DNA from: Bacteroidia bacterium | GTDB lineage: Bacteria > Bacteroidota > Bacteroidia > Cytophagales > JAAEPT01 | Direction: 5' to 3' | Assembly (NCBI GenBank): GCA_030431525.1 | Contig: JAUIJC010000027.1 | Coordinates: forward strand, 4,132 to 68,131 | Length of the DNA stretch: 64,000 nt | Shown here: piece by piece, positions 10,495 through 55,422 of the stretch | How positions within the stretch are numbered: position 1 is the stretch's first letter | Layout of the letters: every line of letters starts with the position of its first letter | Position numbers and translations under genes: made by a program | The notes under the pieces: generated by a model | Databases searched by the model: none | What the model saw: only the letters and a program-made list of their open reading frames with translations | Told to the model about the DNA's origin: nothing

Positions 10495-10725
10495 AGAAGA
10501 TTTCGCCCTTTCAGGGCTATTGGTGTTCCTAAATTGCACAAAGACAAAGGACTTTGTCCTTTGCTAGTATATTTCGCCCTTACAGGGCTAGTACTCTACC
10601 CTATAATATTTATCAATGATTCAGAACTGGTAGGCTTACTTTATAGCGTGTTGTTTTTGCCATGGATAATGCGATGTACAAAGGACTGAAGTCCTTTGCT
10701 GAGGAGAAACGCCCTTACAGGGCTA
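10495..10725. repeat. Cluster of short modular palindromes: module A (GCCCTTACAGGGC) x3 alternating with module B (CAAAGGAC-N3-GTCCTTTG) x2
   Basis: A at 10505, 10575 and 10710; B at 10546 and 10679. It lies between the terminators of the convergent GH18 and mlaD genes. The listed 66-aa ORF here (…LVYFALTGL…) is built from these repeats. Confidence 0.8.
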
Positions 10726-42108: not shown

Positions 42109-42161
42109 TTAAGAGTAGGGCTATACGCCCCACTCTGACATATTTCGCCCTTACAGGGCTC
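42109..42161. repeat. Second copy of the D+A element
   Basis: aagagtagggctatacgccccactctgacatatttcgcccttacagggct. Confidence 0.8.
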
Positions 42162-42249
42162 TTATGGATGGGCTACAGACATCACCCTATGTCTAAATCA
42201 ATGATTGAATTCTTTATGTTGACAACATTGAATGATACCCTTTCCCTGT

Positions 42250-46307: not shown

Positions 46308-46410
46308 CAAAGGACTAAAGTCCTTTGCTATGAAGAACCGCCCTTACAGGGCTAAATTGTGGTAGCCCTGTAAGGGCGGTTCTTCATAGCGATGGATAAA
46401 AATCCATCGA
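46308..46410 (+). repeat. Composite palindromic element B-[gaagaaccGCCCTTACAGGGC-loop-GCCCTGTAAGGGCggttcttc]-C
   Basis: caaaggactaaagtcctttg / 21-bp stem / cgatggataaaaatccatcg. It lies between the convergent porin and menA 3' ends. Confidence 0.85.
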
Positions 46411-52228: not shown

Positions 52229-53617
52229 GTGACCAAGTACCTTGATTTCATTAAACAGCAGTTCTATTTCCCTAATGAGGCCTTCACCCTGAAGGACAAC
52301 GAACTGCACTTCAACGGTGTCCCATTGATGGACATCATTGAGCGCCACGGCACCCCGCTAAAACTTACCTACCTGCCTAAGATTGGTCAGCAGATCAACA
52401 AGGCCCGTGAGTTATTCAACAATGCCATTAAGGAGAAAGACTACCAAGGCAATTACATCTATTGTTATTGCACCAAGTCTTCGCATTTCCATTTCGTGGT
52501 GGAAGAGGCCCTGAAGCACAAAGTGCAACTGGAAACCTCCTCGGCCTATGATATGGCCATTGTAAAGAAGCTTTACGAGAAGGGAAAAATCGCCAAGGAT
52601 ATTACCGTGGTGTGCAACGGTTACAAACGTCCGCTTTACACGGAATACATCAGTAACCTGATCAACGAGGATTGGACGAACGTCATTCCTGTGCTGGACA
52701 ACCTCAACGAGATTGAGCATTACAGGGAAATGGTGACCAAGCCATGCCAAGTGGGTATGCGTTTGGCCGTGGACGAGGACCCGACCTTCGGATTCTACAC
52801 CTCTCGTTTGGGCATTCGCTACAAGGATGTGGTGGACCATTACAAGGAAAAAATTGAGAATGACGACCGCTTTACGCTCAAGCTTCTCCACTTCTTTGTA
52901 AACACGGGCATCCGCGACACACCGTATTATTGGAACGAATTCACACGCTTTATTGAAAAATACTGCGAGCTGAAGAAAATCTGCCCGACACTGGACACGA
53001 TTGACATCGGTGGTGGATTCCCGATCCAGACTTCCCTCCTCTTTGAGTTTGACTACCAAGAGGTGGTGAACTTGATGGTGGAAAACATCCAGCGCATTTG
53101 TGGGGACCACGGCGTGCCTACTCCGCACATTCTTTCGGAGTTCGGTTCCTTCACCGTTGGAGAGAGTGGCGCGGTGCTTTACAGTATCCTCGACCGCAAA
53201 CTCCAAAACGACAAGGAGCTTTGGTACATGATTGACGGCTCGTTCATCACGAACCTGCCTGACACTTGGGCCTTGAACCAGCGTTTCATTCTGTTGGCCA
53301 TCAACAACTGGAACAAGGAACTCCAAAAGGTGAACCTCGGGGGGCTGACCTGCGACTCCATGGATTATTATAACTCCGAGGCGCACCACGCTGAGATTTA
53401 CTTGCCAGCGAATACGGACAACCAGACCCAATACATCGGGTATTTCCACTGTGGCGCCTATCAGGAGTCAATTGGTGGATACGGTGGCATCCAGCACTGC
53501 TTGGTGCCAAGCCCGAAACACTTGGTGCTGGACCGCGACGAGGATGGAAACCTCACTGAATGGGTGTTCTCAGAAGAGCAAAAAGAAGAAGATGTAATCC
53601 GAATTTTAGGCTATTAA
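52229..53617 (+). CDS. speA: Arginine decarboxylase (short Bacteroidota-type, PLP fold-III)
   Basis: 462 aa with a GTG start. It shows the Orn/DAP/Arg decarboxylase pattern (YCTKSSHF..., IDIGGGFP, GGLTCDSMD..., CGAYQES). Confidence 0.8.
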   Translation: MTKYLDFIKQQFYFPNEAFTLKDNELHFNGVPLMDIIERHGTPLKLTYLPKIGQQINKARELFNNAIKEKDYQGNYIYCYCTKSSHFHFVVEEALKHKVQLETSSAYDMAIVKKLYEKGKIAKDITVVCNGYKRPLYTEYISNLINEDWTNVIPVLDNLNEIEHYREMVTKPCQVGMRLAVDEDPTFGFYTSRLGIRYKDVVDHYKEKIENDDRFTLKLLHFFVNTGIRDTPYYWNEFTRFIEKYCELKKICPTLDTIDIGGGFPIQTSLLFEFDYQEVVNLMVENIQRICGDHGVPTPHILSEFGSFTVGESGAVLYSILDRKLQNDKELWYMIDGSFITNLPDTWALNQRFILLAINNWNKELQKVNLGGLTCDSMDYYNSEAHHAEIYLPANTDNQTQYIGYFHCGAYQESIGGYGGIQHCLVPSPKHLVLDRDEDGNLTEWVFSEEQKEEDVIRILGY

Positions 53618-53818: not shown

Positions 53819-53968
53819 ATGAAGAAACTAATCCTTTCCATGATGGCTGTTAGCTTTGGCATCGCCCTTAGCTCTTGTTACCGTCACACGACTTGCGCTA
53901 CTTACACCAAAGTAGACAAGAAGATTGAGATTCAAGAGAAGGGACTCGAACAAGACGAGAACCTCTAA
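53819..53968 (+). CDS. Small lipoprotein, 49 aa (paralogue 1 of 3)
   Basis: Found manually because it is below the track cutoff. The sequence is MKKLILSMMAVSFGIALSSCYRHTTCATYTKVDKKIEIQEKGLEQDENL*. It has a lipobox (L-S-S-C) and its own downstream hairpin with a T-run. Confidence 0.65.
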   Translation: MKKLILSMMAVSFGIALSSCYRHTTCATYTKVDKKIEIQEKGLEQDENL

Positions 53969-53992
53969 TAGCAGACTCATGACGTCATGTAA

Positions 53993-54021
53993 AGCACCTT
54001 CCGGCCGGAGGTGCTTTTTTT
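53993..54021 (+). terminator. Intrinsic terminator after small lipoprotein 1
   Basis: agcacct-tccggccgg-aggtgct followed by ttttttt. Confidence 0.8.
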
Positions 54022-54237
54022 GTGCCTATGGATTTTAGTCCTATCGGCCAATTCCATTCAGCTGATGAAATAAAATACAACGGATTGGAACTTTTTCTCC
54101 TCCCCACTTGTCTTAGACACTCATAAGACGTCCATAACCAACTGCCACACAATTAGGAATGATGAAATAAAATTTCACATTCCGAAAAAAAGCCGTATTT
54201 TAAAATTCATGGTATAGGACAATTAATTCTTTACAAA

Positions 54238-54387
54238 ATGAAAAAACTACTACTTTCCTTGATGGCCGTTAGTTTTGGCATTGCTCTAAGCTCCTGCTAC
54301 CGCGCGACAACCTGCTCGACCTACGTGAAGGCAGACCAAAAAATTGAAATGCAGAAAAAAGGCCTTGAGGAAAACAAGGACCTCTGA
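54238..54387 (+). CDS. Small lipoprotein, 49 aa (paralogue 2 of 3)
   Basis: MKKLLLSLMAVSFGIALSSCYRATTCSTYVKADQKIEMQKKGLEENKDL*. Nucleotide differences from copy 1 include many synonymous and conservative changes, which fits purifying selection. It has its own terminator. Confidence 0.65.
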   Translation: MKKLLLSLMAVSFGIALSSCYRATTCSTYVKADQKIEMQKKGLEENKDL

Positions 54388-54412
54388 TTCCATCCACCCC
54401 ATAAATTTTGAA

Positions 54413-54440
54413 GGCGCCCCATTCTGGAGGCGCTTTTTTT
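54413..54440 (+). terminator. Intrinsic terminator after small lipoprotein 2
   Basis: gcgcccca-ttc-tggaggcgc followed by ttttttt. Confidence 0.75.
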
Positions 54441-54588
54441 ATGCCCCAAAGGCAATTCCAAAAGCAGGAATAAACCTCATAAAAACAACCTAAGAACCTG
54501 AATTCAAGTTTTTTAACATATAAACCCGTTAGACCACAACGAAAAGGAGTACATTGGTCCGTACTCTTTTGAAAATCTTTTAGTAAAA

Positions 54589-54738
54589 ATGAAAAAGCTC
54601 CTTCTTTCAATGATGGCTATCAGCTTTGGCATTGCCATAAGCTCCTGCTCAAACCGCACCACTTGCAACACCTACGGAAAAGTGGACAAGAAAATCGAGA
54701 TGCAGAAAAAAGGTCTCGAACAAGACGAGAACCTCTAA
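54589..54738 (+). CDS. Small lipoprotein, 49 aa (paralogue 3 of 3)
   Basis: MKKLLLSMMAISFGIAISSCSNRTTCNTYGKVDKKIEMQKKGLEQDENL*. It is the same length as the others and keeps the lipobox, the TTC.TY core and the KGLE..(E/K)(N/D)L tail. Confidence 0.65.
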   Translation: MKKLLLSMMAISFGIAISSCSNRTTCNTYGKVDKKIEMQKKGLEQDENL

Positions 54739-54766
54739 AAAATAAAAACAACACTTCCCGCAAGTG

Positions 54767-54879
54767 TCGATGGATTCCCATCCATCGCTAAGAAGAACCG
54801 CCCTTACAGGGCTCTGCGGAATTATTACTGCAGAGCCCTGTAAGGGCGGTTCTCTTTAGCAAAGGACGCGAGTCCTTTG
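54767..54879 (-). repeat. Second copy of the B-A-A'-C composite element, in opposite orientation
   Basis: tcgatggattcccatccatcg / gaagaaccgcccttacagggc...gccctgtaagggcggttctc / caaaggacgcgagtcctttg. It lies between the convergent lipoprotein-3 and gmhB 3' ends. Confidence 0.85.
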
Positions 54880-54900
54880 GTTATTCAATTTTATATATAA

Positions 54901-55422
54901 TCAAACAGCCTCCGCCTTCTCCTCCACCAACTTCTCAGCCAAATCAATCAAGCCATCCACGCGAATATCCGCCTCTGGGCAAGTCTCCTCTGCAATCAGG
55001 CAAGTCTGCAAACCCAATTTCTTTCCGGGAATCAAATCACGTTGCTTGTCGCCCACCATCCACGATTGGCTGATGTCCACATTGTACTTAGCAATGGCGC
55101 GCTCCAACATCAAGGAATCTGGCTTCCTTGTCAAGGAATTCGTCCACTTCTCATGATAAGGAGCGATGTAAATGTCATCCAACGCATTGTCCGTATGCTT
55201 CTGCACATGGTCGTGCACCAACATCACATCCTCGGCCTTGAACGTGCCCTTCACAATCCCAGACTGATTGGTAATCACAATCAACAAATAGCCCGCCTCC
55301 TTCAACTTCCTTAAGGCCTCTGGTACACGATCCAAAAACTGGAACTTTTCAATGGTGTACACATAATCCACGTAGTCCTTATTGATGACCCCGTCACGGT
55401 CAAGAAAGATGCACTTGTTCAT
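54901..55422 (-). CDS. gmhB: HAD-IIIA phosphatase, D,D-heptose 1,7-bisphosphate phosphatase-like
   Basis: 173 aa with IFLDRDGVIN (DxDx motif), VITNQSGI and MVGDKQRDL. Confidence 0.7.
   Translation of the reverse strand: MNKCIFLDRDGVINKDYVDYVYTIEKFQFLDRVPEALRKLKEAGYLLIVITNQSGIVKGTFKAEDVMLVHDHVQKHTDNALDDIYIAPYHEKWTNSLTRKPDSLMLERAIAKYNVDISQSWMVGDKQRDLIPGKKLGLQTCLIAEETCPEADIRVDGLIDLAEKLVEEKAEAV

Follow-up and report, generated by a model that had tools for sequence, protein, structure and literature searches.

Three tandem genes of 49 codons each, located in a 64,000-nucleotide stretch of DNA from a Bacteroidia bacterium of the order Cytophagales (GenBank assembly GCA_030431525.1, contig JAUIJC010000027.1, positions 4,132 to 68,131 of the forward strand; here called the window), encode predicted lipoproteins, which sequence comparison identifies as divergent members of a large, uncurated family of tiny lipoproteins spread over the phylum Bacteroidota. 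By the same comparison, the locus is a lineage-specific triplication within this Bacteroidota-wide family and its products would be, in kind, small outer-membrane lipoproteins. There is hardly any doubt that the three copies are real genes of the tiny-lipoprotein family, and it is very probable that they encode lipoproteins. The copies are located as follows:

53819 to 53968, forward strand: copy 1, a 49-residue prelipoprotein with the sequence MKKLILSMMAVSFGIALSSC / YRHTTCATYTKVDKKIEIQEKGLEQDENL, recognised by its open reading frame (ORF), a lipobox with Cys20 and signs of purifying selection, and called in the public assembly
54238 to 54387, forward strand: copy 2, a 49-residue prelipoprotein reading SSC / YRATTCSTYVKADQKIEMQKKGLEENKDL from the end of its lipobox, recognised by its ORF, selection and lipobox, and called as gene P0002
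54589 to 54738, forward strand: copy 3, a 49-residue prelipoprotein reading SSC / SNRTTCNTYGKVDKKIEMQKKGLEQDENL from the end of its lipobox, recognised by its ORF, selection and lipobox

The original prediction had placed three 150-nucleotide ORFs at these starts, and each of them indeed begins with ATG and comprises 49 codons; the translations can be aligned without gaps. The common signal peptide, MKKL(I/L)LS(M/L)MA(V/I)SFGIA(L/I)SSC, is followed by 29 residues after the lipidated Cys, as had been described, and the mature peptide thus comprises 30 residues if the Cys is counted. Of the 49 alignment columns, 34 do not vary among the three copies; Cys20 and Cys26 belong to these. DNA identity between the copies is 72-75%, with differences concentrated at the third codon position (for example, 11/3/27 at positions 1/2/3). 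In Nei-Gojobori comparisons, the proportion of synonymous differences (pS) is saturated at 0.73-0.83, whereas that of non-synonymous differences (pN) lies between 0.11 and 0.15. The likeness of the copies is well beyond chance. The flanks of the copies do not align, except for AAAATG just 5' of the start and the terminator hairpins described below. The GC content at third codon positions (GC3) of the three copies, 0.56-0.62, tracks that of the neighbouring genes (0.66-0.68). Furthermore, all three copies are kept in related strains represented by contigs of biofloc and aquatic metagenomes, and seven of the eight strain single-nucleotide polymorphisms (SNPs) in their coding sequence are silent (six of seven within copy 3). 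Taken together, these patterns mark the copies as real coding genes under purifying selection and their duplications as old, and the low pN, saturated pS and silent strain SNPs bear out the earlier suggestion that the genes are real and selected. Their absence from the ORF track is accounted for by the default 60-residue cut-off for ORF listing. Gene calling in a public assembly that contains this contig gives copies 1 and 2 their full 49 residues; copy 3 is called at 42 residues (P0135) from an internal ATG at 54610, by which the n-region of the signal peptide is cut off, and this call is a wrong start of a small gene.

The last 24 nucleotides, stop codon included, are identical in copy 1 (53945-53968) and copy 3 (54715-54738). 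Since synonymous sites are saturated elsewhere in this pair, the identity probably reflects a short gene-conversion tract, or else suggests a nucleotide-level constraint at the 3' end.

A lipobox lipoprotein signal had been proposed for all three peptides, and it is recognised in each of them by a PROSITE PS51257-type rule, which asks for a positive n-region, an h-region without D, E, R or K, a lipobox of the form [LVI][ASTVI][GAS]C and a Cys at positions 15-35. The peptides start with MKK, have an uncharged h-region and carry the lipobox (L/I)SSC with Cys20 within the stretches AVSFGIALSSC or AISFGIAISSC. The predicted mature peptides of 30 residues are hydrophilic, with net charges of -1 (copy 1), +1 (copy 2) and +1 (copy 3), a negative mean hydrophobicity and a helical hydrophobic moment of only 0.35-0.37. 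Lipoproteins destined for the surface of Bacteroidota carry an export signal of the K-(D/E)2, Q-A-(D/E)2 or S-D-D-D-D type at positions +2 to +6 (PMC5080379). The corresponding residues of the window copies are YRHTT, YRATT and SNRTT; no acidic residue occurs in any of them, and the export signal is not present at these positions in any of the three copies. Since this acidic signal is missing after the Cys, a position on the periplasmic side, most likely at the inner leaflet of the outer membrane, is predicted for the peptides.

The family to which the copies belong came to light through synteny with a neighbouring speA-like gene, which is described below. When copy 1 was the single query of a word-indexed protein search, nothing but copy 1 itself was retrieved, and back-translated pattern scans of GTDB genomes and JGI metagenomes with the three copies gave no match, as the patterns were too specific. 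By contrast with these searches, a hidden Markov model (HMM) built from the window copies alone matches syntenic ORFs at the loci L013 (1.4e-8), L025 (2.8e-7), L008 (1.6e-6) and about 15 more. A family profile search returned 225 proteins, all of which are annotated as 'hypothetical protein' or 'Lipoprotein' and none of which has a Pfam domain; at 50% identity, the family comprises 783 clusters (E <= 1e-3), nearly all of them precursors of 38-60 residues. The profile also recovers copy 1 (P0001), copy 2 (P0002) and the 42-residue public call of copy 3 (P0135). In a degenerate DNA scan of GTDB species representatives, a bona fide ORF was found in 79 of the 120 sampled loci, and these are all from Bacteroidota (Bacteroidales, Flavobacteriales, Sphingobacteriales and Cytophagales) save one contig, which is binned to a Janthinobacterium metagenome-assembled genome (MAG) and is probably mis-binned; the other non-Bacteroidota matches are chance hits without an ORF. 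Conservation of the ORFs in related genomes, which had been proposed as a check, was thus found both as syntenic orthologues and as the 783 clusters. The statement that the peptides resemble no known family stands in so far as no Pfam or NCBIfam model reaches its cut-off; relatives are nevertheless plentiful in this uncurated Bacteroidota family.

The family signature consists of the lipid-Cys, three to five mostly basic or polar residues, Cys-Pro, [Ala/Thr/Val], Tyr, [Gly/Ser/Asn] and a variable hydrophilic tail. Exactly two Cys are found in the mature part of 253 of the 259 database hits with the two-Cys motif, and in 97% of 340 unique mature regions a Pro directly follows the second Cys (Cys2); the spacer between the two Cys is basic. 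In 195 of the 259 members, R, K or N is the last residue but one. The window copies share the length of 38-60 residues, the two Cys and the positive spacer of three to five residues (they have 49 residues and a 5-residue spacer), and the [A/T/V]-Tyr pair two or three residues past Cys2 is Thr-Tyr in all three. The original prediction had also described a conserved mature part of the form TTC…KIE.Q.KGLE. This part is conserved among the three copies, but in the family at large conservation is limited to the membrane-proximal core Cys-x3-5-Cys-(Pro)-[A/T/V]-Tyr, and the KIE.Q.KGLE tail is specific to the lineage of the window. A metal or haem site formed by His, Cys and Tyr was considered and dropped, as a spacer His is present in just 70 of the 340 family members. 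A PDB sequence search gave matches limited to signal peptides, with no entry holding a family member, and a full-text literature search for the CPAY motif returned nothing relevant.

Two relatives, P0163 (51 residues) and P0230 (73 residues), carry two Cys-Pro-Ala-Tyr motifs within one peptide, and this doubling suggests that the short motif may be the functional unit. A metagenomic protein of 743 residues, P0132, contains at least six tandem repeats of a unit, ...RTRTQCPAYDSTQKHTELS..., which matches the mature-peptide motif; it has no signal peptide and is probably a spurious ORF running through a DNA tandem repeat.

Members without the Pro after Cys2 are rare, namely 7 of the 259 hits, three of which are the window's own, or about 3% of the 340 mature regions. 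The nearest relatives of the window copies, P0202, P0203 and the ORF of locus L025, all read CATY, and since the Pro is missing in few members only, the window genes can be grouped with these three as a divergent sub-clade. Homologues from Spirosomataceae, Hymenobacteraceae and other Bacteroidota, for instance Fibrisoma limi BN8_05971 and Rhodocytophaga aerolata Q0590_12940, belong to the same length class and share the lipobox, the second Cys three to five residues on and [A/T/V]-Tyr. These homologues are, however, encoded by a single copy, have Cys-Pro and possess Pro/Ala/Thr/Gln-rich tails, which usually end in R or K plus a small residue, whereas the window encodes three copies without the Pro, whose Lys/Glu-rich tails end in (D/E)(N/D)L. 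Tandem pairs were found elsewhere at the loci L126, L167, L179 and L189; three copies were seen only in the window, and most genomes have a single copy.

The three genes lie between two genes of known type:

52229 to 53617, forward strand: speA-like ornithine/arginine decarboxylase gene encoding 462 residues (Pfam Orn_Arg_deC_N), the synteny anchor
54901 to 55422, reverse strand: convergent gene for a HAD-family phosphatase of 173 residues (Pfam HAD_2/PNK3P)

The closest homologues of the speA-like gene are found in Cytophagales (60-66% identity). In 32 of the 80 Cytophagales loci anchored on this gene, a single lipoprotein ORF of 40-60 residues is located 100-250 nucleotides downstream on the same strand; the taxa concerned include Dyadobacter, Spirosoma, Telluribacter, Rufibacter, Pontibacter, Rhodocytophaga and two Cytophagales MAGs. 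Directly past the small gene, 36 related loci have a convergent HAD phosphatase gene, with 3.5 nucleotides as the median gap; such a gene also adjoins the closest relative, P0202. The window has the same order of speA-like gene, small gene and convergent HAD phosphatase, and Spirosomataceae and Hymenobacteraceae carry a single copy of the small gene in the equivalent slot. In Fulvivirga, Imperialibacter and some Roseivirgaceae of the L001-L080 set, the HAD phosphatase gene abuts the speA-like gene and leaves no room for a small gene, which suggests that the latter has been gained in or lost from the slot during the evolution of Cytophagales. The gene neighbourhoods of family members differ between lineages, and the linkage to the speA-like gene is therefore positional. 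A functional link to polyamine synthesis via this gene was rejected, as relatives sit in unrelated neighbourhoods.

Several signals flank the copies:

53991 to 54024, forward strand: terminator of copy 1, an 11-bp stem of AAAGCACCTTC and GGAGGTGCTTT followed by a T-run (terminator scan; folding energy -18.6 kcal/mol)
about 54410 to 54440, forward strand: terminator of copy 2, formed by a GC-rich hairpin and an adjoining U7 (-18.8 kcal/mol, z = -4.1)
54739 to 54885, no strand assigned: composite palindromic element in the gap that separates copy 3 from the convergent HAD gene (-85.4 kcal/mol, z = -13)

A hairpin with a T-run had been described for each of the first two copies and a composite palindromic element downstream of the third, and all three structures were recovered by folding. 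The hairpin of copy 1 itself spans 53991-54017, with the T-run following. That of copy 2 was not picked up by a simple terminator scan owing to a bulge in its stem; none of 200 shuffled sequences folds as well. The 3' arm and T-run of the two terminators can be aligned; both arms carry an A-T to G-C change. The composite element, which is probably a bidirectional terminator, consists of small hairpins and a perfect palindrome with a 20-bp stem (54800-54847). The Rfam family Acido-Lenti-1 (RF01687) gives two inverted matches here (38.6 and 36.1 bits), which overlap the element and its palindrome. Units of this kind are found in the window at 10545-10589, 10679-10724, 46308-46353, 54768-54813 and 54834-54879, with a related core at 42147-42164, and their match scores lie at or just under the gathering score. 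The depth of the metagenome contig is about 93 over the composite element, compared to 8.4 in its flanks (about 11 times). By these matches and this depth, the dispersed intergenic repeat is identified as a multi-copy element, resembling repetitive extragenic palindromes (REP) or miniature inverted-repeat transposable elements (MITE), in a Cytophagales genome and thus outside the phyla for which Acido-Lenti-1 is named. No terminator was found between the stop codon of the speA-like gene (53617) and copy 1; copy 1 may therefore be co-transcribed with that gene.

Comparison with known small lipoproteins reveals likeness in kind rather than membership. Scans of the three copies against Pfam and NCBIfam gave no model above its cut-off, relatives are matched weakly over the signal peptide by Pfam LPAM_1 and by NCBIfam lipoprotein models, and PG1828, LptM, BamK, entericidin and Lpp were rejected as families, since nothing exceeded the Pfam or NCBIfam cut-offs. 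The closest parallel is LptM (YifL) of the lipopolysaccharide translocon of Escherichia coli, in which the conserved motif extends from the lipobox a few residues into the mature part and the tail is poorly conserved, and whose acyl chains and N-terminus are placed at the LptD barrel (PMC10567701). Both LptM and the members of the window family are tiny lipoproteins (about 6 kDa or less), in which only the lipobox and a short stretch after the lipid-Cys are conserved; this stretch ends in Pro-x-Tyr, as part of CPAY in the family. In LptM, the conserved stretch presumably reads GxKGPLY. Both also have a poorly conserved C-terminal tail, and an outer-membrane beta-barrel partner is known for LptM and proposed for the window family. 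LptM differs, however, in that it lacks a second Cys, is proteobacterial and has LptD as its partner, whereas the barrel linked to the family is small and OmpA/OmpX-like and was not found in the lineage of the window. Homology to LptM was not detected at the sequence level: the LptM models PF13627 and NF047847 (cut-offs 27.3 and 27.7 bits) gave no hit to the window copies, and their scores against relatives, 14.9-17.4 bits, are below threshold and cover the signal peptide only.

The best-scoring curated model for the three copies and most relatives is NF050142 for PG1828, a small Bacteroidota lipoprotein of about 59 positions without an assigned physiological role (PMC13466725, PMC10126205). 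In Porphyromonas gingivalis, PG1828 is a triacylated lipoprotein of the outer membrane and an agonist of TLR2. The window copies score 16.7, 17.1 and 21.2 bits with this model, over residues 1-28 only, and the range including relatives is 16.7-24.8 bits, below the cut-off of 50. Entericidin A/B (ecnAB) and OsmB are like the window genes in size, with precursors of 41-49 residues, and in their tandem paralogues with separate expression signals; entericidins, however, are without the Cys-Pro-Ala-Tyr core, and the window tails are hydrophilic rather than amphipathic. The Entericidin model PF08085 did not hit the copies even at E <= 10, and the peptides lack an amphipathic helix, in agreement with the original remark that they recall entericidins in size only. 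The window copies thus do not belong to the families of LptM, entericidins, OsmB, Lpp or PG1828.

In orders other than Cytophagales, the small gene is linked to a gene for a putative outer-membrane protein. In 41 loci of the pattern scan, about half of the sampled Bacteroidota loci, the next gene downstream on the same strand encodes a protein of about 250-270 residues at a median distance of 79 nucleotides (for example L205:607-1404, L092:5471-6274, L101:5492-6250 and about 40 other loci; proteins P0267-P0386). This adjacency is seen in Bacteroidales, Flavobacteriales and Saprospiraceae, and in 70 of the 80 Flavobacteriales loci anchored on the partner, the small gene lies upstream. The partner starts with a type-I signal peptide and ends in an aromatic beta-signal (…SYRFGKKWF). 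It has 2151 database homologues, all of them annotated as hypothetical among the matches listed, and it falls into no Pfam or NCBIfam family. Its AlphaFold2 model is an all-beta barrel with a predicted local distance difference test score (pLDDT) of 81.6 and a predicted template modelling score (pTM) of 0.74, and the best PDB fold matches of this model are the OmpA transmembrane domain, Ail/OmpX, NspA, OmpW and OprF-N. With good confidence, the partner is therefore predicted to be a small OmpA/OmpX/OmpW-like outer-membrane beta-barrel of 8-10 strands. In one lineage of Flavobacteriales, a gene for 135 residues on the opposite strand, OsmC/Ohr-like as judged by eye from its sequence, is located between the small gene and the barrel gene, at L209:985-1392 (reverse strand) and in 12 other loci.

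The best explanation, which we favour with moderate confidence, is that the window encodes three anciently duplicated lipopeptide paralogues that face the periplasm and dock on or stabilise an outer-membrane barrel. According to the general lipoprotein pathway, the precursor would be processed at Cys20 by Lgt, LspA and an N-acyltransferase to give a 30-residue lipopeptide, which would remain facing the periplasm, most likely anchored in the outer membrane's inner leaflet. Its working part would consist of the lipid-Cys, the short basic spacer and Cys-(Pro)-Ala/Thr-Tyr, with a hydrophilic tail that may be dispensable or adaptive. The lipopeptide would dock on or stabilise an outer-membrane barrel protein, as LptM does on LptD; this docking is proposed because of the conservation pattern and because the small gene adjoins a barrel gene in other orders. 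The single unblocked Cys would be left for dimerisation or other thiol chemistry. In the lineage of the window, the gene has been triplicated, the Pro replaced by Ala, Ser or Asn and a Lys/Glu-rich tail evolved, giving rise to three isoforms. Taken by itself, the role as a barrel accessory is less probable than not.

Several observations weigh against this explanation. The hallmark Pro is absent from the window copies, in which Ala, Ser and Asn follow Cys2, and having lost it the copies may have diverged in function. The HMM of the barrel partner gave no match in the window or in the Cytophagales and Sphingobacteriales loci examined, so that the docking model draws its support from other orders. 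A motif scan for the partner matched only sequences from orders other than Cytophagales. No Cys is conserved in the partner, and Cys2 is thus not accounted for by a disulfide to it. As described above, neighbourhoods vary between lineages. AlphaFold2 gave no confident fold for the peptide itself from a 29-sequence alignment (pLDDT 57, with a weakly predicted helix at 34-46). Upstream of the copies, no Bacteroidota -7 box (TAnnTTTG) could be recognised, and the one sigma-70-like match, upstream of copy 2, is no more than expected by chance. No RNA runs with the window sequence were found, and only DNA metagenomes (biofloc, aquatic) contain it. Evidence for transcription comes from a relative, a rumen Bacteroidales orthologue, which is covered by contigs of four bovine metatranscriptomes; coverage stops about 100-150 nucleotides past its stop codon. 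These contigs may include DNA, and the RNA may be the 3' end of the mRNA of the upstream gene.

The leading alternative for the role of the lone free Cys is dimerisation. The peptides would then form disulfide-linked, lipid-anchored homo- or heterodimers with a structural or abundance role, as a filler or tether similar to Braun's lipoprotein, and the isoforms of the window would allow mixed dimers. Exactly one Cys free of lipid is found in 253 of the 259 motif-bearing hits, which is in line with this idea, as are the lack of a conserved Cys in the barrel partner, the penultimate R, K or N of 195 of the 259 members and the good representation of the rumen orthologue in metatranscriptomes. However, the peptides are not similar to Lpp, the last residue of the window copies is Leu and not Lys, and a defined tether would call for longer and less variable tails, so that this alternative appears unlikely.

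Slightly less likely still is an entericidin- or OsmB-like stress module, in which the lipopeptides would act on the membrane themselves, as toxin and antidote or as envelope-stress effectors, without any protein partner. The layout of the window, with tandem prelipoprotein paralogues in the size range of 41-49 residues that each have their own terminator, is similar to such modules, Cytophagales lack a fixed partner gene, and the tandem pairs at L126, L167, L179 and L189 point in the same direction. Against it stand the missing matches to Pfam Entericidin and to other small-lipoprotein models, the hydrophilic tails, whose moment of 0.35-0.37 is unlike that of membrane-active amphipathic helices, the conservation of the Cys-Pro-Ala-Tyr core and not of the tail, and the single copy in most genomes.

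The small size, the several variants, the conserved Cys and the hypervariable tails would also suit precursors of secreted peptides, such as signalling peptides, bacteriocins or ribosomally synthesised and post-translationally modified peptides (RiPPs), rather than retained lipoproteins. This reading is very improbable, as a canonical lipobox is kept across the phylum and genes for a modification enzyme, a transporter or immunity do not recur consistently beside the small gene.

The region also contains a longer ORF on the opposite strand:

54269 to 54610, reverse strand: a 113-residue antisense ORF, not a gene (GC3, strain SNP, public assembly)

The GC3 of this ORF is inverted at 0.33, compared to 0.66-0.68 in the neighbouring genes, the strain SNP 54505 C>A puts a stop codon into it, four of six SNPs are non-synonymous in its frame, and the public assembly has no gene call for it; on this evidence it is an artefact, as had originally been supposed. 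The reading of the locus as a repeated non-coding DNA or RNA element, or of the antisense ORF as the real gene, to which the shortness of the ORFs, the longer antisense ORF and the richness of the region in hairpins and repeats might point, can be dismissed as refuted and retains a negligible probability, given the three-base periodicity with saturated silent sites, the similarity that ends at the ORF boundaries, the conservation of the orthologues as proteins across the phylum, and the inverted GC3 and SNP stop of the antisense ORF.

Genes of fewer than 50 codons are routinely dropped or mis-started in annotation, and the wrong ATG called for copy 3 is an example. As a result of the comparison presented here, a Bacteroidota-wide family of hundreds of clusters is described that has neither a Pfam or NCBIfam model nor a solved structure, and for whose CPAY motif the literature search was empty. 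Bacteroidota build their outer membrane with non-canonical machineries for beta-barrel assembly (BAM), lipoprotein localisation (Lol) and lipoprotein export, and small lipoproteins such as LptM have lately been recognised as subunits, hidden until then, of essential machines of the outer membrane. A lipopeptide that is conserved, keeps one Cys free and is linked by its gene to an uncharacterised barrel is a candidate for another such subunit. It is tempting to speculate that the tiny lipoprotein and the adjacent OmpA/OmpX-like barrel form a previously unrecognised two-component outer-membrane module across Bacteroidota, with the lipopeptide as an obligate subunit or assembly factor, and that Cytophagales lineages such as that of the window have uncoupled and multiplied the gene, providing isoforms that may act on several barrels; the odds of this proposal are clearly below even, and it is somewhat more doubtful than the accessory role as such. 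The proposed module would be a functional counterpart of LptM-LptD or RcsF-OmpA. The window, whose three paralogues are old and no longer have the hallmark Pro, represents a natural experiment within the family.

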